Of a DNA stretch of 64,000 nt, positions 37,789 to 45,167 are shown one piece after another. A model generated the notes under the pieces. It made no database searches. It was not told where the DNA came from and saw only the letters and a list, made by a program, of their open reading frames with translations. Positions within the stretch are counted from its first letter, which is position 1; each line of letters opens with the position of its first letter. Source of the stretch: Bradymonadia bacterium. GTDB lineage: Bacteria > Myxococcota_A > Bradymonadia > UBA7976 > UBA1532. The position numbers and the translations under genes were made by a program. The stretch is taken from the NCBI GenBank assembly GCA_046290225.1, contig JBKAGE010000079.1, forward strand, positions 32,001 to 96,000, given 5' to 3'.

Positions 37789-38576
37789 TGATGGGGCTCC
37801 GGGTCAAAGGTGTAGATGCGATTGGCCCACTGCACAGGCTTGGATTCGGTGAGGAACCACCGAGACAGTTGAGCCATGGCCCCCCGAGAGGCTTCGAGAG
37901 AGGCGGTGATGCCACCTGTGTCGAGCTGCTGGTCACTGGCGGGGCCGGAATACTTGTGCCCCACCACGGCCACCGCCGTGGCGATGCCGAGCTCGTTGGC
38001 CATGACCAGCTCCGGCCCCACGGTCATGGAGTTCACGTGGGCGCCCTGGGCGGCCCACCAGCGGTTCTCCGCGGCGGTCTTGGTCCGTGGCCCGCCCACA
38101 TAGGTGAAGACCACCTCCGATGACACCGTGTCCTCGCCAATGCGCTGGCGCAGCTGGTCCGAGAGCGCCCGGTTGCACAGCCCCTCGTCGAGCACGAGGT
38201 GCCCTTGCCCGGGGCCAGCAGGGTGAAACACGGTGCAGGCGGTGCCGTCAGGCAGCCTGTTGTCGGGCATCAGCAAATCGGTGACCACCAGAGGCTCAAA
38301 GAGCGGCAGCTCCGCGGTGAGCACCCCCACGGAGCTGGTGATGAGCAGCCGATCGCAGCCCACGGCCTTCAGCGCGAGGGCGTGAGCACGCCACGGAATG
38401 TGGTGAGGCAAAGTGTCGTGAGGCAGACCATGTCGAAACAGCACGTAGGCCTCTGCCCCTGTGAGGCGATACAGCGTCACTTCACCCGCCCTCGTAGCCA
38501 CAGGCACTGGCTCGAGGGCGTCTCCAGCGAGGGTGGGGGACTGGAAGGCGCTGCCCAGAATGACGGCGGTGGCCAT
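37785..38576 (-). CDS. MTAP-like purine nucleoside phosphorylase family protein
   Basis: RHG..H..PH.IPWRA, SSVG, GPRTKTAAE, MT.GPE..ANE motifs; stop overlaps the nupC start (ATGA). Confidence 0.8.
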   Translation of the reverse strand: MATAVILGSAFQSPTLAGDALEPVPVATRAGEVTLYRLTGAEAYVLFRHGLPHDTLPHHIPWRAHALALKAVGCDRLLITSSVGVLTAELPLFEPLVVTDLLMPDNRLPDGTACTVFHPAGPGQGHLVLDEGLCNRALSDQLRQRIGEDTVSSEVVFTYVGGPRTKTAAENRWWAAQGAHVNSMTVGPELVMANELGIATAVAVVGHKYSGPASDQQLDTGGITASLEASRGAMAQLSRWFLTESKPVQWANRIYTFDPEPHQ

Positions 38577-38621
38577 GGATGCTCCAGCAGAGTAGTTGTT
38601 CGGTCTACGAGAGAGGCGCGC

Positions 38622-39974
38622 ATGAGTAACCCGACACGATCGATTTTCGCCACCCTGGATCTGGGCACCACCGGCATCAAAGGGGCGCTCTGGGGCCCTC
38701 GGGGTGGCCTGGTATTGAACGCCCGCACCCCGGCCCCTGTGGTGCAGACCGAAGACACCGGTCGAGCGTGGCAGTCGTGGCATGTCTACGCGCAGAAGAT
38801 CGTAGCGGTCGTGCAAAGCCTGATGAGAGCCAAACCTGCAAACACCTGGGCGGCCCTCGGCATCACCACCCAGCGCGGCACTGTCCTGGGGTTGGACGCA
38901 GATGGCCGACCCTGCACCGAGCTCATCTCGTGGCTCGACGGCTCAGGCGAGGCCGACAGGCTCACCGCCCACGGCGCCCCCGCGAACGCCCGTGTGTCGA
39001 GCTTGATGTCCATCATCGCCGAGTCTCTCGGCCACAGCGCCATCGACACGTCACAGACCTGCCCCCCAGAGGCCCACACCGTCCATCGCCCTCGACCCAC
39101 GATCCATCCACCAGGGCACCTTCTCGAGGCGCACCCGGTCGCCGATGGCCCACTGACCGGAATCCCCAAAGGCCTGCCGGTGATCCTCGCCGGCGGCGAC
39201 AAGCACTGCGAAATGTTGGGGGTGATGCCTGCCCTCGACCCGCAGCAGGCCGCTTTGAGCCTGGGCACGGCGATCAGTCTGGGCTGGTGGGTGCCGCCGG
39301 GTGAGAAGACACACGCTGAGGATGTCCCCGCCTTCGTGACGCCGACCATCTTCGACGGTTGGCAGCAAGTCGAGGTCGGGCTGCCAGGAGGAGGCTCGGC
39401 GTTTCGCTGGCTTCAGGAGGTGCTGCGTTGGTCTCCAGAGACGCCAGGTGCGTGCTTCGATGGACCACCAGAGGTCGACTGGCCAGTGTGCGTGCCCGAC
39501 TTCTGGGGGCGCTTCGGTGTACCCGGCGCCCGAGGTGGCTGGGTGGGGATAGGCCCTGATGTACCACCGGAGCTGCTGGCGTGGTCGTGGATGGAAGGGG
39601 TGCTCTGGACACTGGAGCGTGCTGCTGCGGCCCATCGAGCGGAGCCACTTACGGATGTCTGGTTGTGTGGTGGCGGAGCATCCTGGGCGCCCTGGTCACT
39701 GTGGGGCCCGGCATTGCTCGGCGGCTGTTGGCACCAGATGCAAGGTGACGACGCTGGTTTGATCGGCGTGGCCCGAGTGATGCGGATGGTGTTGGAGACG
39801 GGGGTGGGTGGGGATGGCTTTGCCAAAGCGGCGAGACGCTACAAGGTGATGTCAGGCGCGTCGAGCACGGCGGCTTCGTGGTCTGTGGAGCTGCTTGCCG
39901 AGCGCCGAGGGCGTTTCGAGGCAGCAGTTCAGGCGCTCTCTACAGCCAGCGGGGCGGGCGCATTGAGAGGATAA
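38622..39974 (+). CDS. FGGY-family carbohydrate kinase (divergent, shortened)
   Basis: LDLGTTGIK, GITTQRGT, GGDK, LSLGT, CGGGA motifs; true start taken as MSNPTR. Confidence 0.8.
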   Translation: MSNPTRSIFATLDLGTTGIKGALWGPRGGLVLNARTPAPVVQTEDTGRAWQSWHVYAQKIVAVVQSLMRAKPANTWAALGITTQRGTVLGLDADGRPCTELISWLDGSGEADRLTAHGAPANARVSSLMSIIAESLGHSAIDTSQTCPPEAHTVHRPRPTIHPPGHLLEAHPVADGPLTGIPKGLPVILAGGDKHCEMLGVMPALDPQQAALSLGTAISLGWWVPPGEKTHAEDVPAFVTPTIFDGWQQVEVGLPGGGSAFRWLQEVLRWSPETPGACFDGPPEVDWPVCVPDFWGRFGVPGARGGWVGIGPDVPPELLAWSWMEGVLWTLERAAAAHRAEPLTDVWLCGGGASWAPWSLWGPALLGGCWHQMQGDDAGLIGVARVMRMVLETGVGGDGFAKAARRYKVMSGASSTAASWSVELLAERRGRFEAAVQALSTASGAGALRG

Positions 39975-40034
39975 ACGCGCCCACCCCGCGACCCACACGG
40001 TCCTACCCCGGCCCCGTGGCTGTGGAGTCATTTG

Positions 40035-40079
40035 GCCCTGCCCGAGACGCCCGAGCGTGCCGAGCGCCCCGAGCAGGGC
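40035..40079 (-). other. 20-bp hairpin just 3' of the tRNA array (3'-end stabiliser or terminator-like)
   Basis: On the minus strand GCCCUGCUCGGGGCGCUCGG pairs fully with UCGGGCGUCUCGGGCAGGGC using G-U pairs; no U-tract. Confidence 0.6.
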
Positions 40080-40098
40080 GAAGTCTGTGAATCAGTGT

Positions 40099-40173
40099 TG
40101 GAGCCGTGAGAGGGACTCGAACCCCCGCCTTCTCATTACGAAAGAGATATTCTCCCCGTTAAACCATCACGAC
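40099..40173 (-). tRNA. tRNA-Thr(CGU), atypical body
   Basis: Cloverleaf GUCGUGA/UCACGGC, loop UU-CGU-AA, UUCGAGU T-loop, U73, encoded CCA; U31-U39 mismatch. Confidence 0.85.
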
Positions 40174-40186
40174 GGCACTGATGTTG

Positions 40187-40258
40187 AGCTGCGAGGGGGA
40201 GTCGAACCCGCGTCTCCTCCCTACCATGGAGGCGTTCTGGCCGTTGAACTACCGCAGC
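40187..40258 (-). tRNA. tRNA-Thr(GGU), atypical body
   Basis: GCUGCGG/UCGCAGC, D-stem GUUC/GAAC, loop AU-GGU-AG, one C-C mismatch in T-stem, U73 followed by CAA. Confidence 0.8.
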
Positions 40259-40293
40259 GCTCAGTATCTTGTTCTCAAAAGCAAAATGTGTAG

Positions 40294-40365
40294 AGCCGCG
40301 AGGGGGAATCGAACCCCCATCTCATCGTTGGCAACGATGCGTCCTAGCCGTTGAACGACCGCGGC
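40294..40365 (-). tRNA. tRNA-Gly(GCC), atypical C3:G70
   Basis: GCCGCGG/UCGCGGC, stem CAUCG/CGAUG, loop UU-GCC-AA, T-arm GGGGG-UUCGAUU-CCCCC, U73 followed by CUA. Confidence 0.85.
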
Positions 40366-40372
40366 GAATTGT

Positions 40373-40446
40373 TGGAGCCGTGAGAGGGAATCGAACCCCC
40401 ACCCCCTCAGTACAAAAGAGGGATTCTGCCATTGAACCATCACGGC
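40373..40446 (-). tRNA. tRNA-Thr(UGU), atypical body
   Basis: GCCGUGA/UCACGGC, loop UU-UGU-AC, U31-U39 mismatch, U73, encoded CCA. Confidence 0.85.
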
Positions 40447-40485
40447 GCTCAGGTACGCGTCATTTGGACATCAAACTCTGTGTAG

Positions 40486-40557
40486 AGCCGCTGGGGGGAA
40501 TCGAACCCCCATCTTCTCCTTGGAAGGGAGCCATTCTGGCCATTGAACTACAGCGGC
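40486..40557 (-). tRNA. tRNA-Gly(UCC), atypical C3:G70
   Basis: GCCGCUG/CAGCGGC, loop CU-UCC-AA, G27-A43 mismatch, U73 followed by CUA. Confidence 0.85.
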
Positions 40558-40558
40558 A

Positions 40559-41055
40559 TCCGGCCCTGCGGCGGCGATAGCCGCCGTGAGGCCTCCCTGC
40601 GTTTCTCCCGTTGCGACCGTGAGGCTGATCGGGGGACGGATCGAAAGGGCGATCTCGCCGATCAGCCTTTGGCCGCATCGGATACAGGGGCCACGGTGAA
40701 GTGGCGGATGTCCAACGACAGGCAGACCTGTCGTACGATCATCGAAACATGGCATTCTCCTCGCCCCCTCGGGGCTGAGTTGCACGTGTTGTGGTGGAGC
40801 TGGCCGGAGTCGAACCGGCAACCTTCTGCGAGCCATGCAGGTGCTCTCCCAGTTAAGCTACAGCCCCACAAATATTTGGTGTTTCAGTCGTTCAGTCTTG
40901 GCCCGAAAGGGGTGCCCGACGCTGTGTCGAGGCGCCCCGATAACTTGTCCGTCTATGCCCGAGACAATCCCGCATCCCCCTCTCACCTGATCCCAGTCGA
41001 GATCGGAAATGGCGAAGGGAGTCCCCACGGCGGCTGGCGCCGCCGCAGGGGCGGA
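40559..41055. repeat. Pair of 40-bp inverted repeats (40559-40598 and 41016-41055) within structured tRNA spacers
   Basis: Manual alignment gives 35/40 identity in inverted orientation; each copy is itself a GC-rich hairpin. Confidence 0.85.
40792..40867 (-). tRNA. tRNA-Ala(GGC) with unusual U37
   Basis: GGGGCUG/CAGCUCC with G3:U70, A73, CCA; loop AU-GGC-UC. Confidence 0.85.
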
Positions 41056-41059
41056 CAAG

Positions 41060-41132
41060 TGGAGCTGGGCGGAATCGAACCGCCAACCTTCCCCGTGCGA
41101 GGGGGGTGCTCTCCCAATTGAGCTACAGCCCC
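41060..41132 (-). tRNA. tRNA-Ala(CGC)
   Basis: GGGGCUG/CAGCUCC with G3:U70, A73, loop CU-CGC-AC; followed by CUU, not CCA. Confidence 0.88.
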
Positions 41133-41424
41133 AGAACAATCGAGTCCGGGTATTTCGTCAGAGCAGGGCACAGTGGTGCTGTGCCTGCTCAGGGTGGCTT
41201 GTGGATCGAAAGACAGGGGTCACTGTTCATGTGTGTTCTCCAGTTATAGATGTAAGTATTGCGTCTCAGGAGGGCGTCGATAGATAGACGCTCACCTGAC
41301 AAGAGTCATAACTTCTCGTCCGCGTGATCGATCACGGGCATGAGAAACCAGAGATCCAATGCTGCACCTTCCCCCAATACGGGGGTGGCCGAGCAAGGAG
41401 AGACCGACGTTCGTTTTCGGGTGG

Positions 41425-41465
41425 AAATGAAAACGCCCGCCTCTCCAAGCCAGGAGGGGCGGGCG
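41425..41465 (-). terminator. Intrinsic terminator (attenuator) upstream of the tRNA array
   Basis: CGCCCGCCCCUCC-UGGCUU-GGAGAGGCGGGCG followed by UUUUCAUUU. Confidence 0.85.
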
Positions 41466-41511
41466 CCGCGTAGAACCGTGTTGTTGAACGATTCTAGGGC
41501 GTTACCCCTCC
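41453..41511 (-). promoter_or_regulatory. Antiterminator hairpin overlapping the leader ORF 3' end and the terminator 5' arm
   Basis: GGAGGGGU/GCCCCUCC, CGCC/GGCG and UAGAAUCGU/ACGGUUCUA nested pairings; mutually exclusive with the terminator. Confidence 0.75.
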
Positions 41512-41673
41512 GATGAGACCGATACCTTTACCTGCTCTGAGCCATGAGGCTTGAGCGTTTCCGGCATCGCTGGGCCCTTCTACACACAGACCCGCCGTTG
41601 CCTCGAAGGCATCGGTACGACGTGTTGCGCTCAAGGCCGCGACGTCGATGATGTGGGTGGTGTAGAAAAACAC
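41494..41673 (-). CDS. Putative attenuator leader peptide (59 aa)
   Basis: GGAG 8 nt before GTG; MFFYTTHIIDVAALSATRRTDAFEATAGLCVEGPSDAGNAQASWLRAGKGIGLIGGVTP*; not in the supplied ORF track. Confidence 0.7.
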   Translation of the reverse strand: MFFYTTHIIDVAALSATRRTDAFEATAGLCVEGPSDAGNAQASWLRAGKGIGLIGGVTP

Positions 41674-41751
41674 AGCAAGGGCTCCAGAGTTGTGACCCGC
41701 CTTGGGGTCATGGGTTCAATGTGTGAGTTGTGTATGTCAGAGACGTGTATG

Positions 41752-41780
41752 TTTCTATGGCTCAGTCATGTGTCGGTCAA
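41752..41780 (-). promoter_or_regulatory. Possible sigma70-type promoter for the leader/tRNA transcript
   Basis: TTGACC-17 nt-TAGAAA about 80 nt upstream of the leader start; imperfect -10. Confidence 0.4.
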
Positions 41781-41967
41781 GGAGAAATCTGAGAAAAATG
41801 CTCTGAATAGTCACTCAGTGTCGTAAGTGGCTGTGAATATGGTGTTTTGGTCGGGAAGTTTTTTCGAGAATATACCCCTGCCCATGCGAATGGAGCCGGT
41901 GATGATCAGCCCGTTGACCCCGCGGGCTGCTTGCTTTCCGTTCGGACCCCGTTTACACCCCCAGGCC

Positions 41968-42684
41968 ATGAGCACGCCCGAGCCCAACACGATCCAGCGC
42001 CGCTTCATGTCGCTTCTCGAGCCTATGGCCCACTACCACCAGCATCGCGTAGAGGGCATGGAGCACATCCCCAGAGAGGGAGGCTTCATGTTGTTGGCGA
42101 ACCACAGCTTCGCCACCTACGACAGCTTTCTGCTGGGCATGGCTGTCTACAAGGCCACGGGCCGGCCCCCTGTGGGCCTCGGGGACGACAGCATCTTCAA
42201 GGTGCCGTTCTTGAAGGACTGGGCGCTCGAAGCTGGGCTGCACCCCGCCAACCCCGAGAACGCTGTGGCCCTGCTCGAGGCCGGGGAGATGGTGTTCCTC
42301 GCCCCTGGGGGCATGTGGGAGGCGGTGCGGCCCTCGTCACAGAAGTATCGCGTGCGCTGGGACAGCCGCATGGGCTTTGCTCGTCTGGCGATGCGGGCCC
42401 AGGTGCCCATCCTGATCGCGGCGTGCCCTGAGGCGGACGACATCTACACGCTGTACGACAACCCGTTCACCGAGAAGGTGTACCGGCGCTTCAAGCTGCC
42501 CTTTGCTGTCGCCAGGGGGGTGGGGCCCACGCCGATCCCCCGCAAGGTGCCCCTGGTGCACTACATCGCCCCGCCCATTCGTCCGCCTGCTCTGGAGGAT
42601 GGAGACGAAGAGGCGCAGATTCGGGCGTTTCGAGATCAGGTGATGGGGCAGATGAACGAGTTGCTGTTCCGCAACTCGCCCTGA
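41968..42684 (+). CDS. Lysophospholipid/PlsC-like acyltransferase
   Basis: VEGMEHIP, ANHSFATYD, APGG..EA, GFARLA..AQVPI motifs; start taken at MSTPEP. Confidence 0.88.
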   Translation: MSTPEPNTIQRRFMSLLEPMAHYHQHRVEGMEHIPREGGFMLLANHSFATYDSFLLGMAVYKATGRPPVGLGDDSIFKVPFLKDWALEAGLHPANPENAVALLEAGEMVFLAPGGMWEAVRPSSQKYRVRWDSRMGFARLAMRAQVPILIAACPEADDIYTLYDNPFTEKVYRRFKLPFAVARGVGPTPIPRKVPLVHYIAPPIRPPALEDGDEEAQIRAFRDQVMGQMNELLFRNSP

Positions 42685-42705
42685 GCTGCGACGGAGGCTG
42701 TGGTG

Positions 42706-43192
42706 GGGCCTTGGTAGGCAGTCATCGCTTCGCTCCGCCTGCGTAGGCGCCGGGCCTTCGGCAGTCCTGCGGACCGCCTCGTCTGGCGCGTACACGTTCG
42801 GGCATCCGCTTGCGCGGACACCCTTCCGGGTAGGCAGGGTCGCTCAGGGCTTCGCCCTTCTTGCTCACTCCCCTGCGTAAAGAGTTTCTTCTGTATCTTG
42901 TTGCTGAACCCCGCCGGGATTCGACCTACCGCGAACCTGCAAGCCTCTGAGTGTGAATGCTCGGCGAAAGCCCCAGCAGCGCCGGAATCAGTGCAAAGTC
43001 ACACCAGAACTGACTTTTTACGCAGGGGAGCGAGCAAACAAGGCGAAGCCTTGAGCGACCCTGCCTACCCGGAAGGGTGTCCGCGCAAGCGGATGCCCGA
43101 ACGTGTACGCGCCAGACGAGGCGCATCGAAGATGTGCCGAAGGCCGGGCGCCTACGCAGGCGGAGCGAAGCGACGGCTGCCTACAAAGGCCC
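42706..43192. repeat. Long inverted repeat (about 180-bp arms, about 127-bp spacer), REPIN/MITE-like
   Basis: 42706-42885 is the reverse complement of 43013-43192, including a perfect core of about 70 bp; lies between convergent genes. Confidence 0.9.
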
Positions 43193-43229
43193 AGCCCCAA
43201 CATTCATGGTGTCATGCCCACCCATCTCA

Positions 43230-43901
43230 TCAGGCTCTGCTCAGCCGACAAACCCGAATGCGCGCCGTTCCCCCAGGAATCAGAGGCCCACTCAAGGGCT
43301 TGACGAGCGTGTCCAACTGCCAGCCGGAGAGCTGCTCGAGAAACCTCGGCACGTGATCCCGGCCCGGATCTGCGATCCAGGCCACCCCGTCCTCAGCGAG
43401 CATGGCGTCGATGGCGCCATAGAGCATGGGCCCGTTCCGCGGCTCGTACAGCACATCTGCTGCCAGGATCGTACGCCAGCGCTCATCAGGGGGATGACGC
43501 CAGTCGATCAAGCGACCCGACATCTGCAGCCCGTTCTCTTCTGCGCTCGCCAGGGCGTATTGCTGCGCCTCGTCGATCCAGTCGCTCACCGTGACCGACG
43601 CTTGCTCACCGGATGCCCGAGCTGCGGCCAGGCCCACGAGGGCGAGGCCCGCGCCGAGCTCGAGCGTGGGCCCTGTGACCGGCACCACACCTTCCTCCAC
43701 GAGGGTGGCCAGGCCGATGGCCGAGGGCCACAAGTCAGCCCAGTAGGGCATCTTGTCGTCTGGATCAGGGGGGGCATCGGCGAGGGCGTCGAGGAGATCT
43801 TCGCTGCTCGCCGGTTGCCAGACCTTCAGCGGGCCCAGCGGGAGCGGGACTTCGTTGAGCGTCGATGGATAGGGCAGGGGACGGGGCGGGTTCGCTTTCA
43901 T
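43230..43901 (-). CDS. Class I SAM-dependent methyltransferase (Methyltransf_16-like)
   Basis: PYWADLWPSA, LELGAGLAL, ILAADVLYE, IADPGR. Confidence 0.88.
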   Translation of the reverse strand: MKANPPRPLPYPSTLNEVPLPLGPLKVWQPASSEDLLDALADAPPDPDDKMPYWADLWPSAIGLATLVEEGVVPVTGPTLELGAGLALVGLAAARASGEQASVTVSDWIDEAQQYALASAEENGLQMSGRLIDWRHPPDERWRTILAADVLYEPRNGPMLYGAIDAMLAEDGVAWIADPGRDHVPRFLEQLSGWQLDTLVKPLSGPLIPGGTARIRVCRLSRA

Positions 43902-43982
43902 GGCGCGCACGGTATCACAGCGGCTCAAGGTGCAGCGGCCTGGTGTCCGAAGTACTCCGGCACGGGCGATGAAGGAGGACAT

Positions 43983-45167
43983 ATGGAGTGGGTGTCAGCC
44001 CTGTCGGAGGCCGCGGACCTCAGCGCCGCCATCGAAGCGACCGTGGAAGACGTCCAGAGCCGTATGGAGGGGGCGCCCGACATCGTCTTCGCCTTCCCCT
44101 CGGCGGACTATGAAGAGGCCATCAGCGGCATCGTTGATGCCCTCGATCGAGCGTGGCCTGGTGTGATCGTCATGGGATGTACGGCAGGGGGCGTTGTCGG
44201 CGACGGCCGGGAATTCGAAGGGCCCCGTGGCCTCGCCCTCACCGCGGCGCAGTTGCCAGGTGTCGAGATCACGACGTTCGTCATCGAGAGCGAGCAGCTC
44301 CCCGAAGCCGATGCGGGCCCAGAGGCTTGGAGCCAGCTCATCGGTGTGTCTGCCGACGCTCTGCCTCACTTCGTGGTGACCCCTGATCCGTTCACTTTTG
44401 ATGCTGAGCGGCTGATCCGTGGCATCGACGCCACCTGGCCCCAGAGCACCCTCGTCGGTGGTCTCGCCAGCGGTGGTCGGCGGCCTGGCGGGCATCTGCT
44501 CTTCGCAGGCGATCGTGTGGTGGAGGGGGGCGCCGTGGGTGTGGCCTTCACCGGCGACATCGCTGTAGAGACTGTCGTAGCTCAGGGGTGTCGACCCATT
44601 GGGCACCCCATGTTCATCACCCGGGGGAGCGGCAACATCATCTCCGAGCTCGATGGCCAGCCCGCCACCGAGGTCCTCGCCGAGCTATTCGAAGGGCTCT
44701 CTCCGGAAGACAAGGGGCTGTTTCGCAATGCGCTGTTCCTTGGGCTGGTCATGGATCCCGAGCAGCAGATGTACAGCCACGGCGACTTCTTGATCCGAAA
44801 CATCATGGGGGTGGACCCCACCTCGGGCATCCTCGCCGTGGGGGCGCGGATCAACAGCTCCCAGGTGATCCAGTTCCACTTGCGCGACGCCCGGACCTCG
44901 GAAGATGATCTGCGGGCCTTGCTCAAGGCGTCGCGAGACCGTGGAGATCGGGCACCGGCAGGTGCGTTGATCTTCTCCTGTCTCGGCCGGGGTGAAGGGC
45001 TGTATGGTCAGCCCGACCTCGAGAGCAGGGTGATCCAGGGCACCATGGGGCCAGTCCCCACGGGCGGCTTCTTCTGCAACGGTGAGATCGGCCCGGTGCA
45101 CGGGCGGACCTTCCTGCACGGATACACCAGCGCCCTGGCCCTGTTCCGCCCGAAGAACTGTCAATGA
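43983..45167 (+). CDS. FIST-domain sensory protein
   Basis: GCTAGGVVG, VGGLASGG, VAQGCRPIG, FLIRNIMG, FSCLGRG, GFFCNGEIGP, LHGYT; GGAGG RBS. Confidence 0.92.
   Translation: MEWVSALSEAADLSAAIEATVEDVQSRMEGAPDIVFAFPSADYEEAISGIVDALDRAWPGVIVMGCTAGGVVGDGREFEGPRGLALTAAQLPGVEITTFVIESEQLPEADAGPEAWSQLIGVSADALPHFVVTPDPFTFDAERLIRGIDATWPQSTLVGGLASGGRRPGGHLLFAGDRVVEGGAVGVAFTGDIAVETVVAQGCRPIGHPMFITRGSGNIISELDGQPATEVLAELFEGLSPEDKGLFRNALFLGLVMDPEQQMYSHGDFLIRNIMGVDPTSGILAVGARINSSQVIQFHLRDARTSEDDLRALLKASRDRGDRAPAGALIFSCLGRGEGLYGQPDLESRVIQGTMGPVPTGGFFCNGEIGPVHGRTFLHGYTSALALFRPKNCQ

Follow-up and report, generated by a model that had tools for sequence, protein, structure and literature searches.

A putative leader-peptide attenuator in front of a redundant Ala/Gly/Thr tRNA operon and its codon-matched paralogs in a Bradymonadia bacterium

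The DNA analysed here (the window) is a stretch of 64,000 nt from the assembly of a Bradymonadia bacterium (GenBank GCA_046290225.1, contig JBKAGE010000079.1, positions 32,001 to 96,000), which carries on its minus strand seven tRNA genes for Ala, Gly and Thr preceded by a short open reading frame (ORF) and an intrinsic terminator. We propose that this arrangement represents trp-type ribosome-mediated attenuation in front of a redundant tRNA operon, and that it is one unit of a genome-wide, codon-matched set of leaders gating a second, isotype-sorted set of tRNAs; we assign this reading a probability of roughly 0.7. The operon is considered redundant because each of its seven anticodons is found at least once more outside it. 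What is apparent from the sequence and its folds are the parts of the unit, its alternative pairings, the match of codons to arrays among the paralogs, and the redundancy of the tRNAs. The attenuator interpretation is supported because the paralogous units match their own arrays, although the statistics of the Ala/Gly/Thr leader itself are weak. Where contigs have to be told apart, that of the window is referred to as C79 and others accordingly.

Leader, terminator and alternative pairings of the Ala/Gly/Thr unit

A first-pass annotation of this locus had described a possible promoter, a GGAG ribosome-binding site (RBS) and a 59-codon ORF, followed by an intrinsic terminator and seven tRNA genes. 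All of these elements were recovered at their positions, which are given below in the order of transcription.

41781..41805, minus strand: A/T-rich, UP-element-like stretch (putative function)
41775..41780, minus strand: -35 hexamer TTGACC, with a 17-nt spacer to the -10 hexamer
41752..41757, minus strand: -10 hexamer TAGAAA, with the transcription start predicted near 41745
41682..41685, minus strand: ribosome-binding site GGAG, 8 nt ahead of the GTG start
41494..41673, minus strand: leader ORF with GTG start, 59 codons and stop (predicted translation)
41504..41511, minus strand: segment 2, GGAGGGGU (codons 55-57), the antiterminator 5' strand, pairing with GCCCCUCC (41460-41453) in the nascent-RNA fold
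41472..41495, minus strand: middle hairpin between stop codon and terminator, enclosed by the antiterminator and present in all five leaders
41434..41465, minus strand: terminator stem-loop of 13 pairs with one C.A mismatch, loop UGGCUU, -25.7 kcal/mol; its 5' arm is segment 3
41424..41433, minus strand: U-run UUUUCAUUUC, ending 64 nt after the stop codon
41133..41423, minus strand: spacer between terminator and first tRNA (297 nt from U-run to first tRNA)
41059..41132, minus strand: tRNA-Ala (CGC), first in transcription order (ARAGORN, Rfam)
40792..40867, minus strand: tRNA-Ala (GGC) (ARAGORN)
40485..40557, minus strand: tRNA-Gly (UCC) (ARAGORN, Rfam)
40373..40446, minus strand: tRNA-Thr (UGU) (ARAGORN, Rfam)
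40293..40365, minus strand: tRNA-Gly (GCC) (ARAGORN, Rfam)
40186..40258, minus strand: tRNA-Thr (GGU) (ARAGORN, Rfam)
40099..40173, minus strand: tRNA-Thr (CGU), last in transcription order (ARAGORN, Rfam)

The seven tRNA genes called by ARAGORN on the minus strand at 40099-41132 were the only ones in the window, and their anticodons were those named in the first-pass annotation. Six of them scored 52-67 bits with the Rfam tRNA model; the seventh, Ala(GGC), is listed by Rfam under the clan-mate tmRNA model with 37 bits. With regard to the promoter, an A/T-rich run occupied the same place in all six leader promoters of the genome, five of which had TTGAC(A/C/T) and the sixth TTGCAT, in each case followed by a 17-nt spacer and TAnnnn. 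A sigma-70 consensus scanner returned no site in 39500-42500, the TTGACC hexamer falling below its threshold. The context of the RBS, GGAGCC(C/T)TT, was also found 9 nt ahead of the ATG in the C20 and C77 leaders.

The leader ORF ends in GGA GGG GTA ACG CCC TAG, and the GC-rich terminator stem is directly followed by UUUUCAUUU; a simple terminator scanner detected only the inner part of this terminator. The folded segment of nascent RNA comprised the final 30 nt of the ORF and everything up to and including the terminator loop, corresponding to the state before the terminator 3' arm exists. In this fold, 14 bases of the terminator 5' arm and loop paired with the last 30 nt of the leader ORF. 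The fold reached -34.4 kcal/mol. Shuffling the ORF end gave -22.9 +/- 3.3 kcal/mol, and among 300 shuffles 0.3% were as stable. The earlier suggestion that the last codons of the leader form the 5' arm of an antiterminator sequestering the 5' arm of the terminator was thereby borne out in silico. As modelled, the geometry is that of segments 2, 3 and 4 of the trp attenuator.

The effect of a translating ribosome was approximated in silico by a crude model in which a 30-nt footprint was masked at each codon. For the Ala/Gly/Thr leader, 10 antiterminator bases stayed paired when no ribosome was present and for every ribosome position as far as codon 50. Once the A-site entered the last ~9 codons or the stop, the number fell to 2-5 at the majority of positions, with some exceptions. 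The C20 and C42b units behaved similarly in this model.

Paralogous leader units and their match to their own arrays

The assembly comprises 8.58 Mb in 83 contigs with 64.4% GC (completeness 99.4%, contamination 2.2%). ARAGORN called 96 tRNAs, with nearly every anticodon in two copies. The Rfam tRNA model gave 85 matches, as opposed to 19-56 in 27 genomes of the same family, indicating about twice the tRNA genes of the relatives; a class-wide count was uninformative, as it scored only 50 candidates per genome and saturated at ~51. The extra tRNA genes are grouped by amino acid into arrays on different contigs. Four of the five arrays with at least seven tRNAs possess a leader:

C79 (contig of the window): 7 tRNA genes, Ala/Gly/Thr
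C42: 7 tRNA genes, Gln/Glu/Asp/Phe
C37: 10 tRNA genes, Leu/Ser/Tyr
C20: 9 tRNA genes, Val/Arg/Lys/Ile

The fifth (C35, Pro-Arg-His-Arg-Lys-Lys-Leu) had neither leader nor terminator in its upstream DNA. The Val/Arg/Lys/Ile array (C20:1-1226) reaches the start of its contig. Arg(ACG) and Arg(UCG) stand at the start of C24 (C24:1-334), and the assembly may have broken a single array into these two parts.

The Gln/Glu/Asp/Phe, Leu/Ser/Tyr and Val/Arg/Lys/Ile arrays were preceded by the same promoter and RBS, an ORF of 32-35 codons with a G-rich end, a middle hairpin and a terminator. The order is that of an A/T-rich run, TTGAC(A/C), a 17-nt spacer, TAnnnn, RBS, ORF, hairpin and terminator. Across all four array leaders, including that of C79, the ORFs have 32-59 codons and the terminator lies 55-65 nt after the stop (measured to the end of the U-run). 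In addition, a Trp-like tRNA has the same promoter, RBS, G-rich ORF end, middle hairpin and terminator in front of it; its leader is 26 codons long and includes Trp codons in tandem. This tRNA has A1-U72, G73 and a CCA anticodon, which we take to be identity features of tRNA-Trp, and its D-arm is reduced. G-rich equivalents of GGAGGGGU occur at the end of all five leaders, and in all four paralogs tested this segment paired with 8-11 bases of the terminator 5' arm. The proportion of shuffles that folded at least as stably was 0.003 for C79 and 0.000, 0.010, 0.010 and 0.033 for the four paralogs. The C79 and C42 terminators share 76% identity over 51 nt, with a compensatory change from G-C to A-U. 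Between C79 and C20, as read from the folds, two antiterminator pairs are changed on both sides, from G-C to U-G and from U-G to G-C; a formal test of covariation would need more than these five paralogs.

The composition of the leaders follows that of the arrays behind them. The Ala/Gly/Thr leader contains 10 Ala, 8 Gly and 6 Thr codons, with five Gly in the last 12 codons, as had been counted before; the sum of 24 refers to the 58 codons after the start. From the proteome, 15.5 would be expected (binomial P=0.011). Codons read by the array numbered 19 (13.6 expected, P=0.067), and all seven anticodons were sampled (P=0.023). Taken alone, this leader is only weakly significant, and the caveat in the first-pass annotation that high GC explains part of the Ala/Gly enrichment was justified. 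The share of residues belonging to the leader's own array was 0.41 for C79 and 0.55, 0.59 and 0.59 for the other three, compared to 0.09-0.19 for foreign arrays and a background of 0.17-0.27 (17-21% for the three leaders other than C79). The corresponding P values for the three paralogs were 2e-5, 3.5e-8 and 1.3e-6. At the codon level, 17/31, 20/34 and 19/34 codons matched the own array (6.2, 5.7 and 6.5 expected; P < 5e-5 in all three). Counting Watson-Crick or G:U codons, the leaders sampled 7/7, 6/6, 8/8 and 8/9 distinct anticodons of their own arrays, as opposed to 2-6 for foreign arrays, so that together 29 of the 30 array anticodons were covered. Among synonymous codons, the leaders include ones that this genome seldom uses. 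In the Leu/Ser/Tyr leader every one of the six Ser codons occurs, together with four of the Leu codons; absent are CUA and UUA, precisely the two Leu codons for which this array has no tRNA. Beyond composition and the G-rich end, the leader peptides have nothing in common in sequence.

These data bear on two other explanations. The leader may act as a general sensor of translation coupling instead of responding to particular codons, such that any slowing or loss of translation, e.g., by antibiotics or ribosome shortage, permits the antiterminator and the amino-acid bias adds little specificity. The nascent-RNA model agrees with this, as the antiterminator forms whenever the last ~9 codons are free of ribosomes, even without any ribosome, and the bias of the C79 leader itself is weak. 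Also the spare-tRNA operon of Anabaena is reported to answer general translational stress (PMC8421152; PMC10272220). However, a general sensor leaves unexplained the own-array composition of each leader, the 29/30 anticodons, the values for foreign arrays at or below background, and the isotype sorting of the arrays, and we regard it as unlikely.

A fortuitous combination of a random GC-rich ORF and an unrelated terminator upstream of a tRNA cluster is very improbable. The enrichment in the C79 leader is marginal, and ORFs of such length are common in DNA of 64% GC. A genome-wide scan, however, yielded 1117 terminator-like sites, 69 of which had the stop of an RBS-bearing ORF of 20-65 codons 40-80 nt upstream, and six of the 69 (five distinct leaders) had a tRNA on the same strand within 400 nt. 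These are exactly the units described here. According to our own arithmetic from the 50 tRNA clusters of the genome, ~0.08 such sites would be expected before tRNAs by chance, whereas five independent units of one architecture, each matching its own array, were seen.

There is a possible sixth unit at C42:38124-38237, where a leader rich in His, Met, Cys and Pro precedes a Cys-like tRNA and the hairpin lacks a U-run of at least four. The region C42:38124-38609 (L013 225-710) begins with a GTG ORF of 37 codons, with His 5, Pro 7, Met 3 plus the start, and Cys 3. The odd Cys-like tRNA is missed by Rfam at E 0.01, and is followed by an ORF that reads as nucleoside-hydrolase-like and then by Pro(GGG). 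The region is possibly a broken-up His/Met/Cys/Pro unit.

Proposed mechanism and evidence that weighs on it

Transcription would begin at the TTGACC-17-TAGAAA promoter, and the 59-codon leader would be translated while RNA polymerase proceeds. When Ala, Gly and Thr codons are decoded fast, the ribosome would reach the last codons and the stop and cover the G-rich GGAGGGGU. The CCCCUCC strand would then pair with its downstream partner, and RNA polymerase would be released at the U-run, 297 nt short of the first tRNA (OFF). A ribosome that stalls earlier because no usable Ala-, Gly- or Thr-tRNA is at hand, or a failure of ribosomes to load, would leave the G-rich segment free to pair with CCCCUCC once the latter is made; no terminator would form and the seven tRNAs would be transcribed (ON). 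Candidate triggers may be tRNA loss to toxins or nucleases, high demand, and translation inhibitors. Leader translation, the switch itself and its physiological trigger are parts of this scheme that we infer. That the operon would be ON when translation fails altogether had been put forward in the first-pass annotation; this inference fits the thermodynamic nascent-RNA model, where the antiterminator forms without a ribosome. Each spare tRNA set would probably be made only when ribosomes read the respective codons slowly.

The 297-nt spacer could alternatively separate two independent transcription units, the leader being a small gene of its own (a micropeptide or small RNA) with the terminator as insulator, and the tRNA operon being transcribed from a promoter within the spacer. 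The spacer is long (79-209 nt in the paralogs), promoters of this lineage are poorly predictable, and the leader appeared as a separate piece in RNA-library contigs (see below). On the other hand, the pairing of leader and array with matched composition recurs five times, the peptides share only composition and the G-rich end, and pairing of the ORF end with the terminator arm is much stronger than for shuffled ends. Furthermore, no promoter-like TTGnnn-16/18-TAnnn[TA] site was present between U-run and tRNA in any of the five scanned units, C79 included. Taken together, an independent gene appears less likely still than a general sensor. The spacer also contains a mini-ORF of 13 codons (41230-41189, minus strand) with its own GGAG, which is not rich in Ala, Gly or Thr, and a 12-pair hairpin without U-run follows it 50 nt ahead of the first tRNA (region 41189-41244).

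Public sequencing data contributed variants of the leader. Six runs each held 5-8% of the sampled words. In the four runs that were aligned, 41133-41371, the tRNA spacers and most tRNAs were uncovered, which is not evidence of termination or silence. One DNA run from marine sediment, in which the strain is ~97% identical, yielded contigs spanning 41372-41646 and 41626-41862 with eight differences each, together 16 of ~490 covered bases. Those in the terminator region concerned the loop (41449) and the U-run (41424, C to U), and those in the middle hairpin the stem (41476, U.G to U-A) and the loop (41486). In the leader ORF, two synonymous sites differed (codons 50 and 59). As read from its sequence, the variant strain of this DNA run keeps the leader design. 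Two amino-acid changes were seen across the runs, E24G and, confined to the RNA-library strain, G38E; together they leave the Gly count unchanged. From two marine RNA libraries of different studies, one contig each was obtained (41508-41727 and 41511-41727); neither has a loose end, and the strain that they represent differs at four bases. Both span the leader only, whereas the DNA run extends past both ends, and they start at 41727, 18 nt downstream of the predicted transcription start. This weakly suggests an RNA that begins and ends at these positions. Short pieces covering 40804-40937 and 40559-40592 were rejected as parts of this locus, as they continue into unlike sequence and belong to other organisms.

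Several observations weigh against the attenuator interpretation. The RNA-library contigs end at 41508-41511, before the terminator, and they may hold DNA, with their ends being graph breaks at strain variants. The C79 leader taken alone is only weakly enriched at the amino-acid and codon levels (P values above), and three of its ten Ala codons are GCA, which is not read by the array. In the crude masking model, two late A-site positions of C79 keep 9-10 paired bases, and the outcome for the C37 and C77 units was ambiguous. The GAGGGG/CCCCUC motif is common to the paralogs and could be conserved for another reason. The spacer is long and contains the second mini-ORF. It may also harbour an unrecognised promoter, because promoter prediction is weak here and the sigma-70 scanner missed even the promoter of the leader. 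No orthologous array, from which covariation of the structures across species could be read, was found in the other genomes searched. Finally, it is not obvious what a cell short of amino acids would gain from extra tRNA, which makes an adaptive trigger hard to name.

On the broader role of the proposed ribosome-mediated attenuators, we tentatively consider, at somewhat less than even odds, that the genome holds a near-complete modular second tRNA set in which each module combines the tRNAs of a few amino acids with a sensor of its own, a mini-gene composed of exactly the codons that these tRNAs decode. The cell would then gauge decoding speed for each codon family and top up only the short tRNAs, as a cis-encoded homeostat of tRNA supply or as a backup against tRNA-cleaving toxins. 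The array tRNAs are divergent in sequence from the housekeeping tRNAs, and this divergence could let them escape tRNA-cleaving toxins.

Surroundings of the array, related loci and known systems

The genes flanking the array are ordinary and encode an acyltransferase, an FGGY kinase, a nucleoside phosphorylase, a nucleoside transporter, a methyltransferase and a FIST protein. The flanks have a GC content of ~66% and the leader one of ~55%, a drop that is usual for non-coding DNA in this genome. Two ORFs on opposite strands at ~42640-42870 and ~43020-43200 encode near-identical peptides, indicating an inverted repeat of ~150-200 nt that flanks position 42.9 kb, located between the acyltransferase and FIST genes. 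Within the array, the tRNA spacers at 41013-41055 and 40559-40601 contain GC-rich palindromic repeats that are inverted copies of each other. Similar repeats on C43, C20, C18 and C12 (86-93% over 30-43 nt) were found, and all look like REP-type elements.

Further unusual tRNA genes occur elsewhere in the genome. The Leu/Ser/Tyr array includes an 86-nt long-arm tRNA (C37:77832-77917), called Thr(UGU) by ARAGORN and matched by the Rfam tRNA-Sec model with 42 bits; its anticodon loop seems enlarged. At C34:374632-375086, three tandem tRNA-like genes of 107-116 nt each (L016 333-448, 522-630 and 681-787; 47-52 bits with the tRNA model) lie directly upstream of Pro(UGG) and Pro(CGG). They carry an insert of ~35-45 nt with a conserved core in the anticodon region, which is too short for a group I intron. 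The near-identical sequence CTGGCACGCCC(T/C)CTGCTCTAG precedes both this insert-bearing Pro-like array (C34 ~374570-374600) and an Asn-His pair (C44 ~41080-41110). It resembles what we take to be the -24/-12 consensus of sigma-54 promoters; such a promoter would be unusual for tRNA genes.

Searches for related loci were directed at genomes, metagenomes and mobile elements, a set that had no genus mate and may lack very near genomes. BLAST of 40035-41830 against 40 relatives returned only single tRNA-Ala genes of ~72-80% identity, and none of 11 fetched loci had the array. When the Gly/Thr part was compared with 400 further genomes of the phylum, eight matched, all with an ordinary Thr-Tyr-Gly-Thr cluster and none with an array-type Gly/Thr tRNA. 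Relatives of the neighbouring acyltransferase were followed on genome contigs (up to 53% identity; named Myxococcota or 'Deltaproteobacteria' metagenome-assembled genomes) and on metagenome contigs (up to 57% identity), and 0/13 and 0/21 of these loci, respectively, carried an Ala/Gly/Thr array. A DNA pattern for two tRNAs, with three matches in the window, hit no metagenome contig, and a pattern for one tRNA hit 13 viral stretches, among which only one tRNA was called. Phage and plasmid records gave generic tRNA-Ala matches only. In 38000-44000, Rfam at E up to 1 listed no leader family, and only tRNA-clan models and sub-threshold chance matches were obtained.

Little is settled about how bacteria adjust the levels of single tRNAs to demand, and tRNA genes are usually treated as constitutive and controlled by growth rate. 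If the proposed mechanism is true, decoding speed would act back directly on tRNA transcription, separately for each amino-acid family, and supernumerary tRNA arrays would gain a mechanism and a purpose as an inducible reserve. Classical attenuation would be extended to a new class of targets, and the leaders would represent a compact, programmable sensor for the availability of chosen tRNAs. In full-text searches of the literature, taken without supplements, no description of leader-peptide control of tRNA genes was found.

Leader-peptide attenuators are known for amino-acid operons, such as trpL, hisL, leuL and pheL, and the multivalent thrL and ilvL. As in the trpL type, the units described here have a promoter, a short ORF with regulatory codons, an ORF-proximal segment pairing with the terminator 5' arm, and a U-run, and like the thr and ilv attenuators they would sense several amino acids together. 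Unlike the trpL type, the targets are tRNAs and not biosynthetic enzymes, so that the feedback would act on decoding capacity rather than amino-acid supply. Moreover, the regulatory codons of the array leaders are scattered over nearly every array anticodon instead of forming a tandem run, a separate hairpin lies between stop codon and terminator, and no Rfam leader family matches. T-box riboswitches bind uncharged tRNA directly, need no ORF and mostly control synthetase genes. The present units would share with them a choice between antiterminator and terminator that reports the state of specific tRNAs; a T-box was not matched by Rfam in the region and at the E-value given above.

The closest counterpart in function is the L-array of trn genes in Anabaena sp. 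PCC 7120. Its supernumerary tRNAs are reported to be silent by default and induced by impaired translation, and the array to be absent from close relatives and to add isodecoder redundancy (PMC8421152). L-arrays in the sense of that report are single long arrays of up to 43 genes with mixed isotypes, and a term search of it for attenuat*, leader and terminator gave no occurrence (PMC8421152). The Anabaena trn operon is one long operon of 23-26 genes and is reported to be under the protein repressor TrcR (PMC10272220). Like the L-array, the Ala/Gly/Thr array is redundant, with its anticodons duplicated, and was not found in the relatives searched. In contrast to it, the Bradymonadia genome has several short arrays of 7-10 genes that are sorted by amino acid and located on different contigs, each with a predicted cis-acting leader switch.

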